The translations under genes were made by a program, and so were the position numbers. The notes below the pieces were generated by a model. The model saw nothing but the letters and a program-made list of their open reading frames with translations. It was not told the DNA's origin and made no database searches. Below, in pieces: positions 8,711 through 39,528 of a stretch of 64,000 nucleotides of DNA (positions within the stretch are counted from its first letter, which is position 1; the number at the start of each line of letters is the position of its first letter). The DNA comes from Eledone cirrhosa (Eukaryota), in NCBI GenBank assembly GCA_964016885.1, contig OZ024741.1:35836001-35900000 (forward strand). The letters run 5' to 3'.

Positions 8711-9974
8711 ATTAACGTACCAGTAATGCACTGGGTGATTTAATTGACTTTACCTTCCCCCAAAATTGTTGGCCTTGTGTCTAAATCAGAATTCATTATT
8801 ATTATCATCTTCATCATAGCTCTTTATTAGTATAAAAAAGAAATTGAATTACTATCATTGTCATTGCCCAGCATCAACTGTTGTTGTCATCAACATCACC
8901 TCACTCTAAAATATATTGATTACTAATGTCAAGGCATCATCACAATGGTTGTGATGTTAGTAAAGTTAGTGGTGATAATGATGGTAGTGTTTGTAATGGT
9001 GTGGAGTGTGGTGATGGTGGTAAGGTTAGTATTGAAGGTGGCACCATTGGTCTTAAAAGTTGGTAGGTGCTTTTCATAGTGATGGTGGTGGTGATACTGC
9101 TACTGGTTGTGTTGGTAATGGTGGCAAAAATTGGTGACGAAAAGTGGTGAATGGTTGTGTTGACAATGAATTGTAGTAGCGTTGGTGATGGTGGCAAAAG
9201 GTGGTGGTGATAGTGGTAATGGTGGTGGTGAATGATTGTAGAAACAGTATTGGCAGGAATTGATGGCAATTGGTAGCAGAGGAGGAGGTGATAAAGTCAG
9301 TAGTTATATTGTTTTCTTTTATTATATCACCAGTGTTGTGTTCTGTTCTAAGTATTTGGTGGCAGTAGTGAAGTTGGCACATTACAGCTGCATATAAAAA
9401 CAAAAACAAAAAAACAAAACTTGGAAGAGGAAGCAACATTTCACAATCGCCTTAGTGTACACAGAAATGTTTCTTAGTGATAAACAAACATATAGAGAAA
9501 GTTCTACAGACAAACCACTCAACACTGGAACAGTGCCAGCTAGGAACCACAAAGACTAAAATATGTGTCAGACTCAGACTCCCTAATGGAACCAGAACAT
9601 AACATTCTGCCAAATTTGGCCATGGGGGAGGGGCCTTGAGTTATGTATATCTGTGTGTATATATATTTTATGGGGAGTAAGTAAGTACATAATTGTGGGC
9701 TTACACTGTTGTATTTTTAAATGCAAAATAATGAGTTCAATCCTTACTATTGAATTTTTTACCTACATTACTTTGGTTACCACTGCTTAACCCATTTGAT
9801 ACTAAACCATCTGAAACCACCCATGATACTACCATACAAACTATTCTAAAATAGGCTGTGTTTATCTAAAAACCTTCCATGTAAGAATATTTGTTAAGTT
9901 ATGCTCCAAACACCAGCTTCATTATGACTAAGTTATTTCATTTCATTTCATTTCATTTGAGTTTGAGTCCATGC

Positions 9975-12900
9975 TCAGGCCAAGTCGAAGACTCCACCCT
10001 CAGAGTCTGGTGTGGTTGCCAGGTTGGATTCTCTGTTTAATTTTGACATGTGTAGGAGCGATTTTGAGTCAGTTTGTGCTCGTTGTGTATATCCTGGGAG
10101 ATGGGGTTCATCTCTAATGGTGCTTAAGTATCTATCCAGCTGCAATTTGAATGATTCCACGCTGCATCCTGATAGATTTCTGACATGTACCGGAATGAAG
10201 TTGAATAGTTGTGCCCCTCGAACCAACAGACTTGACTCTCGCAGGGTTTTTGCTGCCTGGCCAGCCCTTTTGTTGATTGGTGGTAGCTGGCAGCGCCTTC
10301 CGTGGCGCAGTGAGTGGTAGGTTTTGATACCAAAGTTTGGCACCTTTTGCTCTATCATTTTCCAAATGAATATAATTCGGTATCGCTCAAATCTTCTTTC
10401 TATTGAGTACATCTTCAAGGTTTTAAGTCTTTGCCAATAGTCCAAGTCCCTCGTTTCTGAGAAGTATGAGGTAAAATTTCTTTGGAGCGATTCCATCTTA
10501 GATAGTTGGCCCTTTGTTGTTGGTGACCACAACTGAGAACAGTAGTCAATCCTCGGAAGTACCATACTGTTCCAGAGGGTTTTCATTGTTGAGGTATCTC
10601 TTGATTTGAAGGTGCGTAAGATCCACCCGCTGTATTTTCTTGCAGTAAGACAGACTGAGTGAAGGTGTTCTCTGAATTTTAGGCTGGTTCCCATGTGGAT
10701 GCCTAAATCTTTCACACACTGTTTTTCCATTATTTGTTGTCCTGATGGGTTTCTGTAGTTTGTTGTATTTTTCAGATCTTGATCTGTTCCATAGCGAATT
10801 AGTTCAAACTTCTTATCATTGAACAACATGTTGTTTGTTTCCTGCCATTTGTATATGGTGGTTAGGTCCTTTTGTAAGGCCTTTGTATCCCCCTCGTCTT
10901 TGATTTGTCTCATGACCCTGGTGTCATCAGCAAAGGATGAGACGTTGCTGGTTGTATCTTCATCTATGTCAGAGATGAGGATGAGAAACAGGATCGGGCC
11001 GAGTACTGTACCCTGAGGAACACTGCTGGTCACAGGTGATGGTGTTGAATGGGTTCCATTCACAGTGACTGAGTTCTATTTGTAAGGAACTCATGTATCC
11101 ATGTACCAACTTTTCCTCCTACTCCTAGTTTTCGAAGTTTGTGTCCCAGGATGCCATGATCTACCTTGTCAAATGCCTTGGCAAAGTCGAGGTAAATAAC
11201 ATCTGTGTTGTATCCATTCTCTAGATTTTCTAGGATTTGGTCATGGTGTGCCAGTAGTTGGGAAAGACATGATCTACCTAACCTGAATCCATGCTGATTG
11301 CAATTCATCAGATTGTTGGATTCCAGGAACTCAACCAGTTTTCCACGAACTATTCTTTCGAAGACCTTGATAATGTGTGATGTCAGTGAGATTGGTCGAT
11401 AGTTCTTTGGTTTTGATTTGCTGTCCCTTTTATGTATTGGAGTTATGTGTGCTTCTTTATATGTATTTGGTATTTTGCCATTCTCCATAGATTCCTTCCA
11501 TATCATGTAAAGGGGTTTCAACAATTGTACCTTGCAGTTTTTAAGTATCATGGCATTGAAACCATCAGGCCCCGCAGCCGAGTGCATGGAGAGCTTGTCT
11601 ATGGCTCTTTCTATGTCTTCTGGGTTGAAATCAATGTCGGATAGGGTAGGTTTAGTATGGTCGATATCCTTAAAGAATTCTCCTGGGTCATGGATCTTCA
11701 TGGTTTTAGATGGCTCACTGAAGACACTTTCATACTGTTGACCCAACATTTCTGCCATTTCAATAGGGTTATTCACTACATCCCCATTTTGTCTCTGGAG
11801 AGGTCCTATTGTTGACTTGGTATTCGAGTATTTCTTTGCAAAACTGTAGAAACATTTTGGATTTTTCTTGATGTTTTCTATGGCTCTCTTTTCTGCATTG
11901 TTACGTTCTTCATCATAGTGTTGTTTTAGATTGTCTTCTAATCTGTATATTTGGTCAAGGACTTTCTGTAGTTCATGTTTTGATGTCAGCTTAGATGTTT
12001 TGTTTCTTAGTCTTGACCTTTTGCGCATCAGGATCTTTCGCTCCCGTGGTACAGGTTTTTTTGTGGATTTGGTTTTCTTAAGAGGAATATTTTTGGCACA
12101 TATTTCTTCGATCTTGTTTAAGAATTTCTTGTGTTTATCTGGCCCAGTAAGGTAGAGATCCCAGTCAATGATTTGTAACTGGTTGTTAATAGTTTCCCAA
12201 TTTGCCTGGTGATAATCATACCTGCATAGCTTTGGCATGTCCTTTTGTTTAAGAGTTGTGGCATTGGGCTCATTACCAATGTGTAAATGCATTTCAATAA
12301 TATTGTGGTCTGAAAAGATTGTTGGGGTTGAGTGAAGGTCAAATAGCGTGTCCTCGTTGTTGGTGAAAACCAAGTTGATCGTATTATTATTTCTAGTTGC
12401 TTCTGTCATCATTTGTTTGAGGTATAATTTCTCTGTGACTTCCAACAGTTTGGCTGCCTGTATTTGTTCAGCTTTTGTCCCCAGTTTTAGTATGTGTCCA
12501 TGTGGTCAGATGATGTTAGGGAAGTTGAAGTCACCAAAGAGGATAATGTCTGGCATTGGACTCGCCATGTTTCCCAGAATTTGTTGGAGCTTTGTCAGTG
12601 GCTCAGTGAAGGATAATGTTGGGCTGTTTGGCGGTCTGTACATTATTGTTACAACTGTATTAAGTTGGATGATTTTTATGCACAGCAGGTTGCAGTAGGC
12701 ATTTGATTCATTGAAAAGTTCTATGCATGCATAGGTATCATGGATATACATGATAACGCCCTCATGGGATCTACCTTGTCTATCACATCTGAAGATGTTG
12801 AATCCATTGATTGAGATTTCGCTGTTGCGGATGTTTTCGTTGAGATGACTTTCAGTAATTCCAATTATTTTGGAGTTGTTTTCTGTTGCTAATTCTTCCA

Positions 12901-13177
12901 ACAAAGGGACTTTACACTGTTTTGTTTTCGGATAAAGACTCTGGATATTTGCCGTTATTATGTTTGTTGTACCGGATACATCTGCCCTATTGTTGGCAAG
13001 ACTGTTGTAGTTGCTGGGACTGTGCTGACTGGATATTCGGTCTGCTGGGCTGTCTGTATTTGTTGCATGTGCCCTGTAAGTCCAGGTGTCAGCCTTTGTA
13101 TCAATGTTGCCTGGTTTTGCTGAGTCATCTGTATGGAGTACAGCTGTTGTTGTAGTTGGTAGATTATGCCTAAAAAA
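9975..13177 (-). pseudogene. LINE ORF2 (AP endonuclease + reverse transcriptase) with one in-frame stop and one frameshift
   Basis: Frame open from 13177 into the APE domain; TGA at 12506-12508 (probable TGG Trp) with the same frame resuming into ORF 11060-12445; frameshift at about 11062 into ORF 9975-11063. Confidence 0.88.
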
Positions 13178-13228
13178 CTGCTTTCATTCATTACTGTATC
13201 GAATTTCTGCGAGTTTGGGTTTGTTATA
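12958..13228 (-). pseudogene. LINE ORF1 C-terminal remnant (Q/T-rich)
   Basis: ...ESSFLGIIYQLQQQ...QQT* lies upstream of and overlaps the ORF2 frame; the track's start at 13287 falls in flanking MITE sequence. Confidence 0.65.
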
Positions 13229-16250: not shown

Positions 16251-19200
16251 CGGGATACTATAGAGTATACCAATAGATATCCCGACAAAATTGACGGTAT
16301 CAACATGGCCGACACCTCATTATCTGAAGAGTTCAACAATAAAAATACCAACATTTATGGAAACACGAAAATAGATAATAATGAAATGTCTGTGTTACGT
16401 CTGCCACCCAAATTTGCGACATTCAAGAAGGTAAATATGATTAGTTGTCTGTCAGAAATAGAAAAATCATTTACGAAACTACGCTGGAGCATCAAAAACA
16501 AAAACAAAAGCAACAATATACGCACACACATATACAACACACATCCCAACAACAACAGACACACAGACACAAACAACAATAACAACAACAATAGCAACAT
16601 ACCCAGATACAATACCAACAATAGCAACATACCCAGATACAACAGACACGCAGACACAAACAACAATAACAACACACACGGAGACAACAATAACAACAAC
16701 ACACACATCAACAACAACAACAACAGCAACATACCCAGATACAACAACAACAGACACGCAAACACAAACAACAATAACAACACACACAACAACGATAACA
16801 CACACACACACGGAGACAACAACACACATCAACAACAACACACATCAACAACAACAACACACACACATTCAATGCCTCTCACCACCACTACAATCTTAAC
16901 AAACACACAGACACAGAAAACAAGTAATGACAGTAGCACAGAAATCAGAGAAATAAGAGAAAGTAATAGGATTAAAAGGAGTAGGGAGACTAAGGACAAA
17001 GAGAATAACCAAGACGAACACACAGACACACAAAATAGGGTAGATAACAACATTGAGCCAGTGGAAAGAGACAGGAGTAATTATGAGAGACATAGAAACA
17101 ACCATGAAGCTGAGGCTGCTGCTGTTGGTGGAAATAGAAACAACACAACTAACAATAGCGCAAGTACACATAAAGCAGCAGCCTGGAACTCTCCGTTTTA
17201 TAATCCCTCCGATAAATCATTCGACCTACGACGAGTCCACGCCACGACTTTGCCATTTAACAAACGCACGCAGTTGCCGTCGCAGGTCGATGAACAAACA
17301 GAAGCACAATTTAGTATAGCTAAATCCGAACTTAGAAATATTATAGAACAGTATAGCAAGAAGCATAATAGAATAGAGGCCCAGCAACTGGGAGAAGAAT
17401 CTGCAAATGGCTTGCGTAAGCTCATGCAGCGCTCGCGTAATGGAGAGATAGCATGCTTTCCAACAGACAAGTCTGGCAGAATGTCGGTTGACAGCCTGCC
17501 AAACTACATCCAGGCAATGCAACCCCACATCACTAACACAAGAGAGGTAACACCACAGGAGCATGAGGACAGAGAAAAAACCCTCAATGCCCATATGGTG
17601 ATGTGGACAAATATAATGCAGCCCAACAAAAGGACTGCCAACAACTTCCAGGCCTGGAACAATGACGTGCCGGCGTTGTATGGGCTTCGAAAGGACCATA
17701 AAACGGGCTGGGACCCTGTCGCGGGACCACCAACACGGCCAGTCTGTGGGGCTAACATTGCTAGTAACTACAGACTGTCCTACTTCCTCTCCCTGATCAT
17801 ACGCCCCATCATTGAGATGTCCCCAGATGTGTGTGACAGCACGGAGGACCTCCTCAGCAGAATCGACGCGGGTAACCGATCTGGGGACCTAACAAACTGC
17901 ATAATAGGCAGTATGGATGTTGTGTCCCTGTATCCATCTATTGACGTGGATTTTGCTGTGGAGAAATGCGTCGAAATGATCAGCGAGAGCAAGGTTGAGT
18001 TCCGTGGGATTGATACCAGTGAGCTGGGACTTCTACTTAAGCTTACCCATAGTAATAGTTACCTAGACACTTATGACCTTAGCAACCTGTGCCCTACAAG
18101 ACCAGCAAGAGGCAGACCACCTACCATTACCTCAATGGCCAAGAAAACCCACACAGATAGATGGAACGGGTGGACCAGAGCCATACGGACACCCGAAAAC
18201 CACGATGAACTGAAGAAAATGATTGCACATGCGGTAGGGGCCAGCATAAAATTAACCCTTAAGGAACATATGTTCAAATTTAATGGTAAAACATATGCCC
18301 AAGAGGAAGGAGCAGCCATTGGTGTTAGCATTGCAGGCGACATAGCTAACTTGTTCATGGTATGGTGGGACAGTAGACTTAAACAAAAACTTAAAGAACA
18401 ATTAGAAGACAGATTAACCCTGATAATGTACTCCCGCTACGTAGATGATATAAACATCGTAGTTAAGACACCCCCACTAAAGAACAGTCAGGAACCTGAG
18501 AAAAACACAATGGAAAGCATCCAGCAAATAGCAAACTCCATCCACCAGAGCATTAGAGTTACTATAGACTACCCAAGTAGACACCCCAACCATCGATTAC
18601 CTGTACTAGACACAGAGCTCTGGTTAGATACTATTAACAACCAAAAACAAATCCTCCATTCCCATTATGCCAAACCCATGACTTCCAAACATCTGATCCA
18701 CCGAAACTCGGCCATTTCGGACCATACCAAAATCAACATACTGATTGCGGATTTGATACGGGTGATGAGAAATGTGTCCCGCATGTGCAACCCCGAAGAA
18801 CTAGAGAGACACATACAACACTTCATCCACCGTATGCAGTTCTCTGGCTACAATCAGAGAGATAGAATCAGAGTGTATAAAGGAGCCAGAACCAAATGGG
18901 AAAAAATGGTAAATAATGACATAAATGGGACCTGCCCCTTGTATAGGAGCAAATTTTGGAATAGAATAGAAAGAACTAAGAACAAGGCCAATAGAATAAA
19001 CTCATGGTATGATAGCAATAAATACCAGAGTGTAATGTTCATCAATACAACCCCTAGAGGTGAACTAGCCTACAAATTTAGAAGGGCCCTAAAGAAACAT
19101 AATCTCAATATTAAGATAGTAGAAAGACCTGGTACCTCCGTAAAAACACTTATTAGCAAGACATACCCGTTCCAAAGACCCTCATGTATAGATAAGAAAT

Positions 19201-19568
19201 GTATAACCTGTAAAATAAGCCCCCATATTAACTGTAAAACTAGAAATGTAGTATATAGCATAAGATGTACTGAGGGACAATGTAGAAACAAAAATATAGT
19301 GTACATAGGTGAGACAGCTCGTAGTATAGGGGAACGAATAAATGAACACTGGCGAGACCTCCAAGATACTAAAGAATCATCTGTGCTCTACCAACATGCT
19401 AAGATAGAACACAGGGGTAAATTAGAGAGCATAGAAATAAAAATAGAATCCACACACAAGAAAGACGCAATGTTTAGGCAAATTACAGAGGCAGTAAGCA
19501 TAAAAGAATTAAAACCAAAATTAAATAGAAAATATGAGTGGAACAGCAACATCACAACTTACAATTAA
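16251..19568 (+). CDS. Penelope-like RT / GIY-YIG endonuclease polyprotein (5' end in gap)
   Basis: Stop-free about 1100 codons after the gap: PTDKSG, LYGLRKDHK, RPV, SMDVVSLYPSI, GAAIG, RYVDD, LPVLDT; linker CIDKKCITC...C; VVYSIRC...C...YIGET.R...R..EH...H...H; E...I...P.LN. Confidence 0.92.
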   Translation, partial: RDTIEYTNRYPDKIDGINMADTSLSEEFNNKNTNIYGNTKIDNNEMSVLRLPPKFATFKKVNMISCLSEIEKSFTKLRWSIKNKNKSNNIRTHIYNTHPNNNRHTDTNNNNNNNSNIPRYNTNNSNIPRYNRHADTNNNNNTHGDNNNNNTHINNNNNSNIPRYNNNRHANTNNNNNTHNNDNTHTHGDNNTHQQQHTSTTTTHTHSMPLTTTTILTNTQTQKTSNDSSTEIREIRESNRIKRSRETKDKENNQDEHTDTQNRVDNNIEPVERDRSNYERHRNNHEAEAAAVGGNRNNTTNNSASTHKAAAWNSPFYNPSDKSFDLRRVHATTLPFNKRTQLPSQVDEQTEAQFSIAKSELRNIIEQYSKKHNRIEAQQLGEESANGLRKLMQRSRNGEIACFPTDKSGRMSVDSLPNYIQAMQPHITNTREVTPQEHEDREKTLNAHMVMWTNIMQPNKRTANNFQAWNNDVPALYGLRKDHKTGWDPVAGPPTRPVCGANIASNYRLSYFLSLIIRPIIEMSPDVCDSTEDLLSRIDAGNRSGDLTNCIIGSMDVVSLYPSIDVDFAVEKCVEMISESKVEFRGIDTSELGLLLKLTHSNSYLDTYDLSNLCPTRPARGRPPTITSMAKKTHTDRWNGWTRAIRTPENHDELKKMIAHAVGASIKLTLKEHMFKFNGKTYAQEEGAAIGVSIAGDIANLFMVWWDSRLKQKLKEQLEDRLTLIMYSRYVDDINIVVKTPPLKNSQEPEKNTMESIQQIANSIHQSIRVTIDYPSRHPNHRLPVLDTELWLDTINNQKQILHSHYAKPMTSKHLIHRNSAISDHTKINILIADLIRVMRNVSRMCNPEELERHIQHFIHRMQFSGYNQRDRIRVYKGARTKWEKMVNNDINGTCPLYRSKFWNRIERTKNKANRINSWYDSNKYQSVMFINTTPRGELAYKFRRALKKHNLNIKIVERPGTSVKTLISKTYPFQRPSCIDKKCITCKISPHINCKTRNVVYSIRCTEGQCRNKNIVYIGETARSIGERINEHWRDLQDTKESSVLYQHAKIEHRGKLESIEIKIESTHKKDAMFRQITEAVSIKELKPKLNRKYEWNSNITTYN

Positions 19569-20454: not shown

Positions 20455-20470
20455 ATATATATATATATAT

Positions 20471-21622
20471 GTGTGTAGGAAAGGCGTAGGTAGAAACTCC
20501 ATTTTGTGTCCTAAATGCAAAGTATGGGTGCATAAAAGATGTAGTGGGATCACAGGTAAGCTAACTAAGAACATAGATTTTACATGTGGCCGGTGTTCTG
20601 GTGCAATAAGTAGCAGCAAGTGCCCACACAATACTAGCTCTTTCAATTGCGCAGAGGGTTCTATAGAAATAGTGGACAGCTTCCGTTACCTGGGCGATAA
20701 AATCAGCAGTGGGGGAGGGTGCTCTGAAAGTACTGTAGCTAGAGTCAGAACTGGTTGGAAAAAGTTCAGAGAGCTTATACCACTATTAGCTGCTAAAGGG
20801 TTCTCCCTAAAAATGAAAGGCAGGTTGTACGATGCCTGCATACGAACAGCAATGTTGCATGGCAGTGAGACCTGGGCATTGTGTGCAGAGGATATACGCA
20901 GACTAGAGAGGAACGAAGCTTGCATGCTCCGCTGGATGTGTAACAGTAATATACGTGAACGGCAAAGCATAAACGAACTAAGGAAAAAATTAGAGATAAG
21001 AGGGATCAGATGTTGTTTACTCGAGAGAAGGCTACGTTGGTATGGACACGTGATGCGCATGAAAGTCGATAGCTGTATAACAAAGTGCAGGGCAATAAAG
21101 ATAGACGGTAGCCACGGAATAGGCAGACCTAGAAAAACCTGGGACGAGCTGATAAAATCCGACCTCACACACTTACACCTCTCCAAGACAATGTCACTGG
21201 ACCGAGACCTTTGGCGGTACTCAGTAACAGAGAAGACCCGCCTTGCCAGTAGGCATCTCTAACAAAATACACCCCGTCCCACCACCACCACCCCCACCCC
21301 ATCCACACCACCCCGTCCTATGTAAAGTTATGTTGGTGCCGCGCCATCCGGGCCGAAACAAATGAGATCGTGTAGGTGTCACGACAAAAAAACACACAGT
21401 CCACGCTGTAATGTGGCCGTGTAGGCAACACGGTAAAAACCTCCCAGACCCACACTGTAAATGTGGTTGGTGTTAGGAAGGGCATCCAACTGTAGAAAAC
21501 CTGCCAGACAGTCCTATGCGAGCAAGACAATCACTCTTGCCTCAAGTGGGACTACCCCCGTCCAAACCCATGCAAGCGTGGAACACGGACGTTAAACGTT
21601 GATGATGATGATGATGATGATG
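20471..21622 (+). mobile_element. 5'-truncated RTE-clade LINE (ORF2 C-terminus with PHD-like finger, 3' UTR, (GAT)n tail)
   Basis: ORF 20471-21262: FRYLG, LYDACIRTAMLHGSETW, RRLRWYGHVMRM, GRPRKTW; ends GGACGTTAAAC..(GAT)n. Confidence 0.9.
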
Positions 21623-35289: not shown

Positions 35290-35611
35290 TTCTCTGGAAA
35301 TAGAATTTTGCTTCCAACATTCTGTGGAAATTACAAATGGAGATATTTCGTTTTCCCGCGTTCAGCCTGTCTTCTCCAATCCCAGCCATCTGATTGGCTG
35401 CATCGTGCCTCATGACGGCTTCATCACGGACACATTTTTAAATCAGCCATCTTGGATTATCTTACCATCAATTTTCATGGAAAATGATTTTTTTTTATTA
35501 TTAAAATTTTCTTTGGAATATTTTTTTTTAAAGAAAAAAATTACCAGCAATCAGCAGCAACACCTGGCTAACTATTGACCAACACCAAAAAGTCATCAAA
35601 TACGTGGCACC

Positions 35612-36397
35612 ATGAGTCAACATCATTTGCCGTCCTTCGCAGGCGACATCAAGTTGTGGTTTGCGCAGCTGGAATGTTTCTTCGAATTGACGAGGACAAA
35701 GGAACAGCATAAGCTGAAGGTCCTGATCAATGGCCTACCTGTTTCCTTGGCATTCTCGGTGAGGGACGTTGTGACGGATTTAGACGCCGACGTTACCTAC
35801 GGCTCATTAAAAAAAGAAATCCTTCGCCGAAATACCAAGTCGGTAGAGAGCCGTTTTCGGGAGTTGTTGGACGATGCTCAAATGGGTGACAGGAAGCCGA
35901 GCTCCTATTTGCGACATTTACGGGAGTTGAGCGACTCCCAGGGGATTGACACCCCCTTCATAAAGCAACTTTTTTTCTCACGCCTACCACCAAGTGCGCA
36001 AAGAATATTGGTCAATAGTTTAGAGAAGGATTCACTGGAGCAACTTGCCGCGTCCGCGGATAGGATACTTGAGGTGGACTCGAACAGCAATCAGCATAAC
36101 CCATATGTGGCTTCAGCTTGCGTCCCTCCACGCAGTTCTTCTGTGGCCGACGGCAAACTGTTGGAGTTGATTGAAGCTCTCACCAAAAAGGTAGAGGATT
36201 TGACGGTACATCAGAGAGAGCCTTCTCAACGTTTGAGGTATCGTTCGCCGCCGTCCTCTATTCATCGCCAGCACTACAACGCAGGCAACAATAATTCTTC
36301 GTTGTGTTGGTACCATGCTAACTTCGGCAGTAGGGCGCAACGTTGTCACACGCCCTGTGATTATAAGAGATTGGGAAACGCCAAGCAGAGCCACTAG
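35612..36397 (+). CDS. gag: Gag
   Basis: 261 aa; LWFAQLE..F, GDRKPS..LR and C-terminal CWYH..FG..A.RC..PC knuckle typical of this Gypsy lineage. Confidence 0.9.
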
Positions 36398-36416
36398 GAG
36401 CGGCTAGTGAACTCTG
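36373..36416 (+). promoter_or_regulatory. -1 ribosomal frameshift signal
   Basis: In-phase G_GGA_AAC, 6-nt spacer, hairpin CAGAG-c-CACTAG-gagcgg-CTAGTG-aa-CTCTG. Confidence 0.85.
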
Positions 36417-39400
36417 GGAAAACCGACCGAACCGCCATCTTTTCGTATACGACCTGCGGTCAAAAAAATTTTTCCTTGTCGATACTGGCGCGTCGCTGAG
36501 TATTTGGCCAGTCAGTTATCTCAAAAAAAGCCCAGCCGAAGCAGATATAAATCTACGAGCAGTCAACCACACGGCCATTCGAACGTATGGGCAAATTTCG
36601 CTTCCTCTTTGGTTAAAAAATTTGCGGCGTGATTTGAGGTGGAAGTTTACTGTCGCCGACTTGCCATACGCCATTTTGGGAGCGGATTTTCTCCACCATT
36701 TTTCCTTGTTGGTGGACATTCGCAGACAACGCCTTGTTGATGCTGAAACAGGCCTTTCTTTCGAGGGTTCAGAGCCGGACGTCGCCACCGTCAGCCCTTC
36801 CTTTTTCTTGGCTGAAGTGGGCAACCAGTATCAAAGCCTGCTGCATTCATTCCCTCAGTTGACGCAGGGAAAGTTACGAATAACTAGCCCGGACCATGCG
36901 ATTGAACACTTCATATCCACTACAGGTCCACCTGTTTTCTCACGTCCTCGAAGATTGTCTACAGAGAAGTTGAAAGCTGCACGTCTTGAATTCGACCACA
37001 TGCTGGAATTGGGAATAATTCGGCGCTCCACAAGTCCTTGGGCATCGCCTCTGCATATGGTACCTAGATCTTCTGGGGATTGGAGACCGACGGGTGACTA
37101 CCGACGCTTAAACGCGATTACTGTGCCTGACCGTTATCCAATCCCGCATTTGCAGGATTTTGCGTCGTCATTGCAGGGTTGCAGAATCTTTTCTAAGCTT
37201 GATTTGATCCGCGCTTATAACCAAATTCCGGTTAACGAGGAGGATATCCCAAAGACTGCTATTGCCACTCCTTTCGGATCGTTCGAGTTCCTCACTATGC
37301 CTGTCGGCCTTAGAAACGCTGCAAGTACCTTCCAACGATTTATGGATGATATTACTCGGGGCCTGGATTTTGTGTACACGTATATCGACGACGTGTTGAT
37401 TGCTAGTTCTTCCCCTCAGCAGCATTCAAAGCATCTGGATCTCGTATTTCGTCGTTTACAGATCTATAATGTTCGAATTAATGCTTCCAAGTGTGTTTTC
37501 GGCTCGACTTCACTAACATTTTTAGGCCATCTGATTGACGCCGATGGTATTCGACCTCTTCCTGAGAAGGTTAAGGCAGTATCGGATTTGCCTCCGCCAA
37601 GTTCACTGCGTCAATTGCGTCAATTCCTGGGCCTTGTAAATTTTTATAGGCGATTCGTACCTGGTTGTTCCAAATTGCTGTTCTCGTTGACAGAGATTTT
37701 TAAGGGTTGCCCGCGTAAGAATATGGACATTTCCTTAAATGAAACGCAGCTTGATGATTTTAAAAAAGTGAAAAAGGCGTTAGCGAACGCGTCTTTGCTC
37801 GCCCACCCAGTACCCAACGCCGAGCTATCGCTCTGTGTTGATGCTTCGGACAGCGCCGTGGGTGCAGTCTTACAGCAGAAGGGTGATGGGGTACAGCAAC
37901 CACTCGAGTTCTTTTCGAGGAAGTTAAAGCCTGCAGAAACTCGCTATAGCACCTTTGGAAGGGAGCTATTAGCAATTTATTTATCAGTGAAACATTTTGC
38001 TCATGTACTTGAAGGTAGAACATTCACCATTTTCACTGATCATAAACCCTTGACGTTTGCTCTTCGAACTAAGGCAGACAAATACTCGCCCAGAGAAACG
38101 AGACATCTGGACTTCATCTCACAGTTCACGAACGACATTCAACATATTCCGGGTTCTTTGAATACAGCGGCCGATGCGCTGTCTCGCCTGCCGATCGCAT
38201 CGATTTCGTCTTCCGAGGAGATAGATTTACATCGAATGGCAGCTGCCCAACCCACTCTCGAATCGTTGGATGTTACATCGCCAGAGTTTGTACATTGCAA
38301 ACTGAAATACATTCCGATCTCAACTGCTGACGGACAGATACTGTGTGATGTTTCGTTGGACTCACCACGACCTCTAGTCCCAGTGGAACATCGACGAACT
38401 GCGTTTCTCGCTTTACATGGCATTTCTCACCCAGGAGTATCAGCCTCAGTAAAACTCATAACAGCCAGATTTTTCTGGCCTGGTATGAGACGTGACATTG
38501 CTGCTTGGTGTCGTTCCTGTGTCGCTTGCCAACAAGCGAAAGTTCATAGACATGTTAAGGCTCCTCTCGGAACCTTCACCTGCCCCGATGCAAGATTTCG
38601 TCACATTCATGTGGACATCGTCGGCCCGTGGCCGGTTAGTCGTGGTTTTTCGTATCTTTTGACGATTGTTGACCGTTTTTCGCATTGGCCTGAAGCCGTC
38701 CCTATAACAGATATCACCGCCGAAACCACAGCCCGTACCCTCGTATCTTCGTGGATCGCTCGTTTCGGTGTACCAACCACCATAACAACAGATCGTCGTC
38801 GTCAATTCGAGTCTAACCTCTTCCGAGAGCTAACCCAAATCCTGGGGGCTACTCGAATAAGAACCACGGCTTACCACCCAGCCTCAAACGGAATGGTGGA
38901 AAGATTCCACAGGCAGCTCAAAGCCTCCTTAAGGGCTTCCATGGACTCTTCACGTTGGAGCGAGTACCTACCCATTGTATTGTTGGGTATTCGGTCGACG
39001 GTAAAGGTGGACCTTGGGTTCTCCTCTGCCGAATTAGTTTATGGTACGCCTCTGGCGTTACCGGGGCAAATGCTGGCCCCTTTTGACCTGACTTCGCAGG
39101 ACCCCGCTTCCTACGTGTCCCGGCTTCACTCTTATTTCAAGGATCTACCACCGATGGGCACTAGGAAGCAGACTGTAAAAACTGCCGTCCCAAGGGATAT
39201 TGCCTTGTGGACCCATGTGTTCGTTAGAGACGACGCCGTGAGACCCCCTCTTCAACGGCCGTACTCTGGACCCTATCGTGTGCTTGCTCGCACAGACAAA
39301 CATTTCACACTGGACATTCGGGGTTCCAGGGAAACGGTTTCCGTTGATCGTCTCAAACGAGCAAACCTGGACAATGACACAATGACACTTGAAACTCAAA

Positions 39401-39528
39401 TGCCCCCCTCTTTTTCTTTGCCACACAGGCCTATTTCTTCCCCTCCCCCACCATCAACACACAGAACTACGACCCGTTCTGGGCGAAGGGTGCATTGGCC
39501 CCGTAAGCTATGCAGTAATATAAACTGA
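36373..39528 (+). CDS. pol: Pol (protease, RT, RNase H, integrase), in the -1 frame relative to gag
   Basis: Frame open from 36373; LVDTGA at about 36475-36492, SPWASP, YIDD, DASD, HHCC, D-D-E, GPY motif, terminal TRSGR; the track start at 36622 misses the protease N-terminus. Confidence 0.95.

Follow-up and report, generated by a model that had tools for sequence, protein, structure and literature searches.

A conserved HIV-1-type slippery sequence in a LINE clade points to expression of ORF2 by programmed -1 ribosomal frameshifting

Our analysis of a 64,000-nt stretch of the Eledone cirrhosa genome (contig OZ024741.1, positions 35,836,001 to 35,900,000; hereafter the window) suggests that in a clade of LINEs ORF2 is reached through programmed -1 ribosomal frameshifting, with an ORF1-ORF2 fusion as the product, a reading of the sequence data to which we assign a probability of roughly 0.8. 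An in-phase slippery sequence identical to that of HIV-1 stands where the two genes overlap, so the ORF2 enzyme is likely made when ribosomes slip one base back. The heptamer, its phase, the G on its 3' side, the open -1 frame, the blocked +1 frame and the conservation of codons across families are visible in the sequences themselves. An ORF1-ORF2 fusion had been proposed in a preliminary description of this DNA, and the comparative data support it, with frameshifting as the step deduced from them.

The LINE copy in the window lies on the minus strand, running from about 13226 to 9937, and consists of a 3' piece of ORF1 followed by ORF2. Truncation has removed everything 5' of about 13226, a point 49 nt before the heptamer, so only ~16 of its own ORF1 codons precede the slippery site. 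The ORF1 fragment (12958..13226) contains the Phe-Leu site, a putative helix and a Q/T/P-rich tail, and ends in a TAA at 12960-12958. As the preliminary description stated, ORF1 reads AGT TTT TTA GGC through the heptamer (TTTTTTA at 13177-13171, U_UUU_UUA in the RNA), and a TGA two codons upstream (13186-13184) closes the -1 frame; a conserved G at 13170 completes the signal (13170..13177). ORF1 stays open through the overlap, earlier put at ~215 nt and here measured as 72 codons (216 nt; 12961..13177) open in both the 0 and -1 frames, and the -1 frame continues without ATG into the APE domain, as also claimed, the first in-frame ATG being at 12751-12749, within APE. ORF2 (-1 frame, 9975..13177) comprises a linker, an APE domain that begins near 12960 (Pfam Exo_endo_phos at E 4.6e-4, short of the curated cutoff) and then RT (RVT_1). 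The +1 frame contains six stops across the equivalent of the overlap in copy L035, to which the window copy is 97% identical in amino acids. The window copy itself is dead: a TGA (12508-12506) and a frameshift (near 11063-11072) disrupt its ORF2. About 20 nt past the ORF2 stop lies a microsatellite 3' tail, (ATGAA)4 at 9937..9956, without poly(A). The order of APE and RT in ORF2, the dispersed 5'-truncated copies and the common 3' tail identify the element as a LINE, and its overlap combines an in-phase X_XXY_YYZ heptamer with a -1 frame that is closed shortly upstream and open into a domain, the arrangement of a programmed -1 site.

The window copy belongs to a young two-ORF LINE family (the focal family). 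A DNA search of the source genome (3.0 Gb; 40 of 187 candidates scored, 94-100% identity) found the heptamer intact in all 30 loci compared; 27 of them have a 72-codon overlap, 29 a -1 stop two codons upstream, and 28 their first -1 ATG at codon 142-143, a lesion coming earlier in the remaining two. A second genome search, with only the sequence downstream of the site as query, gave 30 loci, every one unspliced and with the heptamer present; together the searches yielded 35 distinct copies, all with in-phase U_UUU_UUA_G (35/35). The heptamer and its phase are thus kept across copies, and so, bar individual lesions, is the ATG-free overlap open in both frames, in agreement with the earlier proposal. 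In one copy (L024, G000:C8:46946919-46947343), the overlap has lost 2 nt and the two ORFs share a frame, probably through a post-insertion lesion confined to that copy. Full-length ORF1, present in other copies, encodes 452 aa with a PHD finger, three CCCH fingers, the Phe-Leu pair, a helix-like segment and a Q/T/P-rich tail; among named proteins, those of Octopus vulgaris come closest, at 91-97% identity. Agreement among copies as young as these is little guide to selection. Taken by itself, the focal family has a -1 overlap that is open in 55% of synonymous resamplings (P=0.55), and the slippery 8-mer is expected by chance 0.62 times per 6.5 kb. The features of the focal family are by themselves not beyond chance; across diverged families they are far beyond it.

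Protein searches found 19 relatives, and each of the 16 homologues extending into the region retains Phe-Leu, with flanks that are unalignable. Scanning metagenomes with patterns drawn from the CCCH fingers only returned 24 loci: 16 hold a single in-phase T_TTT_TTA_G after the third finger, identical to that of the window copy, and three hold G_GAT_TTT or G_GTT_TTT at the homologous place. Five were left uncounted (L049, where the contig ends; L052, degenerate; L058, with the site deleted; L059, diverged and lacking ORF2; L061, a broken copy one T short). From the site, the -1 frame is open in 19/19 loci, reaching APE in 17 of them and running off the contig in two, with an unbroken -1 ORF of 1103-1125 codons in three; the +1 frame has 2-10 stops in each of these 19 loci. 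The nearest upstream -1 stop is 0-48 codons away in the distant loci and two in the focal family. Collapsing four near-duplicate pairs left 15 non-focal families; in the 14 families whose APE sequence was long enough to compare, APE identity is 26-78% overall, and 29-47% when measured against the focal family.

A profile search of 1.84 billion representatives gave 996 clusters at E<=1e-30 and 2671 at 1e-10 (clusters at 50% identity), and matches in the atlas search were unnamed zf-CCCH clusters only. Among the best 150 profile matches, 135 had scorable tails, and the protein-level tally, which is in part circular, the motif having been included in the search profile, was F[LF] after the third finger in 133 of the 135. 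The residue before F[LF] was one whose codon cannot end in U (K/E/Q/M/W) in 1/133 (background 25%), and the residue after it had a G-starting codon in 118/133 (background 23%). Viral contigs gave 27 pattern matches with no relative among them, and a weak search of 2398 candidates (proteins of 1071-3055 aa) found no natural in-frame ORF1-ORF2 fusion in a single ORF. A 2A/StopGo-like motif occurs near the ORF1 N-terminus in P0011, P0013, P0015, P0016 and 34 of the best 150 profile matches, so some elements may combine StopGo with -1 frameshifting; 2A sequences are known in LINEs, and PMC3708506 found one within ORF1 only once. Another ORF1 relative, P0053 (921 aa), has a long N-terminal extension that by eye is like a ubiquitin-specific protease domain.

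Conservation beyond the source genome, which bears directly on the earlier proposal, extends to the exact codons at the homologous place in diverged families. Synonymous sites between families are saturated: in the conserved third finger, the same codon occurs at shared residues in 42% of 1857 family-pair comparisons, with 41% expected at saturation. At the slippery site, all 14 Phe-Leu families use TTT, TTA, a T-ending preceding codon (seven different ones among the 14) and a G-starting next codon, whereas none of 51 other Phe-Leu pairs uses the site's codons, so nucleotide-level conservation exceeds what the protein needs. The chance of the site codons is about 0.017 per family. The -1 overlap is open in 15/15 non-focal families against 2.6 expected from synonymous resampling (joint probability ~1e-15 if independent); since the families share ancestry, such joint values are indicative only and the independence assumption overstates them. 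These data bear on whether Phe-Leu might be kept only for the function of the ORF1 protein, with the open -1 frame simply following from the Q/P/T-rich tail. That Phe-Leu begins a conserved helix-like segment fits such a view, as does the resampling result for the focal family alone, but selection on the protein has no means of preferring TTT to TTC or TTA to the five other Leu codons, or of holding a T-ending codon before them, in 14/14 families, and we consider this explanation very improbable.

The variant sites are informative about the signal itself. In an APE-region tree of 18 rows with a midpoint root (L044, L045 and L048 were too short and were excluded), the three G-type loci form one clade (98/98 support) nested among T-type families. 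This clade, the only one to have lost U_UUU_UUA, carries instead G_GAU_UUU, the -1 site of pea enation mosaic umbravirus (PMC5009743), or G_GUU_UUU, that of cardioviruses (PMC4524249), with a predicted stem beginning 8-9 nt past the new heptamer. Transcriptional slippage on the T run, adding a base that brings ORF2 in frame in some RNAs, would produce proteins resembling those of a -1 frameshift and would account for the conserved T6 run. Slippage of this kind could work in any codon phase, yet the phase never varies; the variant sites offer T4-T5 only, no T7 exists among the 35 genomic copies, and contigs guessed to be RNA show no indel at the site. It is accordingly a very unlikely source of ORF2.

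Splicing could also join the two frames, if the conserved UUUUUUAG with its following G were a 3' acceptor through which a spliced RNA connects the 5' part of ORF1 to ORF2. The motif does fit an acceptor, the variant UUUUUCAG followed by G in L051 and L056 fits still better, and P0002, an automatic Octopus vulgaris model, joins ORF1 to the -1 frame at the site. However, eight contig sets guessed to be RNA contain no joint into the AG, and six of the eight bridge the site unspliced, though contigs drop rare forms and thus leave room for rare splicing. No processed copy exists among the 35 genomic copies, 30 of which were found with sequence downstream of the AG only; pyrimidines make up 38% of the upstream region on average, below the ORF1 background in most loci, and competing AGs are present. 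The acceptor phase differs between heptamer types (2 versus 1), and L053 has a purine at -3, a poor acceptor, yet keeps G_GAU_UUU. With data at the contig level showing no polypyrimidine tract, fixed acceptor phase, junctions or processed copies, we regard splicing as quite improbable. A single contig has a non-canonical 232-nt skip near the ORF1 start, unrelated to the slippery site.

Canonical -1 sites have a stimulatory RNA structure 5-9 nt downstream, and we compared the 45 nt after the site with resampled sequences that preserve the ORF1 peptide and the open -1 frame. The native sequence had a better predicted fold than the resampled ones in 8 of 16 families (p<0.05; Stouffer z -6.8), while five control windows had mean z of -0.31 to 0.59. 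The predicted stems begin 6-13 nt downstream of the site, in several registers. No single consensus stem serves all families: RNAalifold, applied to 14 loci, predicted no structure, and covariation in a fixed register across 12 loci was not significant against shuffles (122 of 500 scored as high). All eight stem families fall in one 13-row clade, with the focal family, L038, L057 and L060 outside it and stemless, which makes the focal site the least canonical one in its clade. The focal family has no proximal stem (p 0.23), nor has its nearest relative (p 0.78). The preliminary description had named a CUGUA-cucca-UACAG hairpin as the nearest structure; this weak 5-bp hairpin (13129..13143), 27 nt downstream of the heptamer, does occur in the MFE fold but is no better than shuffles (z -0.35; p 0.23) and is absent from the nearest relative; it is probably not the stimulator. 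Long-range duplexes in the focal family were also unconvincing (best -5.9 kcal/mol). Without a proximal stem, the rate of frameshifting in the focal family is probably low, or a stimulator has escaped MFE folding; low-level slippage on a bare U_UUU_UUA_G, as this sequence would provide, may suffice for a LINE.

Termination-reinitiation, or translational coupling at the ORF1 stop, would yield free ORF2p from an AUG or near-cognate codon and leave the heptamer vestigial or otherwise used. Alisch (2006) reportedly described AUG-independent translation of L1 ORF2. In all families the ORF1 stop is at or shortly before the start of APE, L055 has a TGATG stop-start and L054 an ATG at the APE start, and the UAAUA at the focal ORF1 stop is one base from the UAAUG through which SART1 couples its ORFs (PMC3708506). 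The lack of a proximal stem in the focal family also suits reinitiation. The earlier argument from the absence of ATG holds in the focal family and is weaker beyond it, as an in-frame ATG precedes APE in 4 of the 13 relative families whose sequence extends that far, once in the form of TGATG. Reinitiation nevertheless leaves unexplained a codon-exact heptamer 50-100 codons upstream together with an open -1 linker in 19/19 loci. From about -35 nt before the ORF1 stop to 45 nt after it, 13 of 15 loci have no -1-frame ATG, and initiation at the AUA would probably cut into the first APE strand. Reinitiation is therefore an unlikely route to ORF2, although the two mechanisms may coexist in elements such as L055, where a TGATG overlap at the ORF1 stop (near 2312) accompanies a perfect heptamer and stem.

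Under programmed -1 frameshifting, ribosomes translating ORF1 would occasionally slip at U_UUU_UUA, presumably by tandem tRNA slippage, and would then read the 72-codon linker followed by endonuclease and reverse transcriptase, with a predicted transframe peptide of ...SSF(L/F)RHNLP.... The predicted fusion has ~1,450 aa and might arise at a few percent or less, most ribosomes finishing the 452-aa ORF1p. The overlap would then double as ORF1 tail and fusion linker; by eye, no alignment can be made between the -1 linker peptides of L035 and L038. In half of the families, a stem 6-13 nt downstream may play a stimulatory role.

This arrangement is that of HIV-1 gag-pol, with an identical heptamer, a 3' G and a structural ORF followed by an enzyme ORF in the -1 frame (PMC5009743). 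The HIV-1 site combines U_UUU_UUA with a 3' GGG and a nearby stem, and many LINE relatives have a predicted stem ~6-9 nt downstream. Unlike HIV-1, the LINE is a non-LTR element (APE and RT) with neither integrase nor a protease that could free enzymes from the predicted fusion; it also has a 50-102-codon dual-coding overlap, and its focal family lacks the proximal stem. Among LINEs, our literature search found only one precedent for -1 frameshifting, a statement on TRE5-A and TRE3-A. In these APE-type non-LTR elements of Dictyostelium, ORF2 requires a -1 frameshift according to a figure legend (PMC5911963); their ORF1 and host are unrelated, and the accessible part of that paper gives no slippery site, stimulator or experiment. 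The mechanism is thus a known one, in a class where it has already been stated, and a conserved signal was not found documented there. SART1 (UAAUG coupling) and mammalian L1 (reinitiation) share with the focal LINE a bicistronic RNA and low ORF2 (PMC3708506, PMC5009743) but make a separate ORF2p begun at or after the ORF1 stop, whereas the focal signal lies 72 codons before that stop and predicts a fusion. In other elements, frameshifting is given for HeT-A, the mechanism for TART as unknown and that of L1 as not by bypass (PMC5009743), and +1 frameshifting or reinitiation was suggested for Paramecium LINEs (PMC5405496).

A microsatellite 3' tail in place of poly(A) is typical of the CR1 clade, and the focal tail, (ATGAA)n, is of this type. 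By eye, the focal RT motifs match CR1 entries of RTclass1 (PMC3708506 supplement). On motif likeness judged by eye and tail type, and not on a tree, the focal LINE is likely CR1-like. It resembles the PHD-ORF1 CR1-clade LINEs of Metcalfe and Casane (2014; PMC4120745) in its PHD finger, its ORF2 with APE and RT and its microsatellite tail, and might correspond to their CR1 subgroup 2 (PHD, otherwise unclassified); the survey differs in that its accessible text has no CCCH-finger ORF1 and no mention of frameshifting. Zenon, which has no ORF1 and a poly(A) tail (PMC13343379), is ruled out by the 452-aa ORF1 and (ATGAA)n tail, and the octopus element RTE-2_OV by its single ORF (PMC9115989). No account of a slippery site in LINEs of the CR1 group emerged from the literature searched, though Repbase Reports, subscription papers or supplements could hold one, and the word 'frameshift' has no match in the accessible text of PMC4120745, PMC13343379, PMC11203168, PMC10294476 and PMC9115989.

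At the level of the whole clade, we lean, somewhat less firmly, towards a broader proposal: in a large undescribed CR1-type clade (~1,000 ORF1 clusters at 50% identity, E<=1e-30), retrovirus-style -1 frameshifting may be the standard and ancient route to ORF2, giving a Gag-Pol-like fusion with its own PHD and CCCH RNA-binding fingers. Along the tree, heptamers would have been swapped for other viral types, and stemless lineages may use a protein stimulator, possibly ORF1p. The worked-out routes of LINE ORF2 translation are reinitiation (L1) and stop-start coupling (SART1), to which a clade-wide slippery site adds a third candidate. If true, a fused ORF1-ORF2 protein would account for cis-assembly and set the ORF1:ORF2 stoichiometry as in retroviruses. 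The families also add many natural eukaryotic candidate -1 cassettes, with heptamer swaps and stem-bearing as well as stemless versions. For annotation they carry a warning, since such junctions get read as introns or broken ORFs. P0002 (746 aa, 'fission process 1', Octopus vulgaris) is an automatic model made wholly of LINE ORF1 and ORF2 pieces joined at the slippery site, and is probably a mis-annotation.

Other elements occupy the plus strand of the window. A Ty3/gypsy LTR retrotransposon (35579-39528) has a gag-like ORF (DUF7041) and a pol of 1053 codons in the -1 frame (RT, RNase H, integrase); its in-phase G_GGA_AAC (36373-36379) is a -1 site of a common and known kind. At about 16260-19568, behind an assembly gap and an AT microsatellite, a long open frame without Pfam match resembles, on visual inspection, a Penelope-like element in its RT motifs and its GIY-YIG-like C-terminus. 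A 268-codon frame at 20456-21262 begins with a PHD finger (Pfam E 1.7e-5) and is possibly the 5' part of another LINE.
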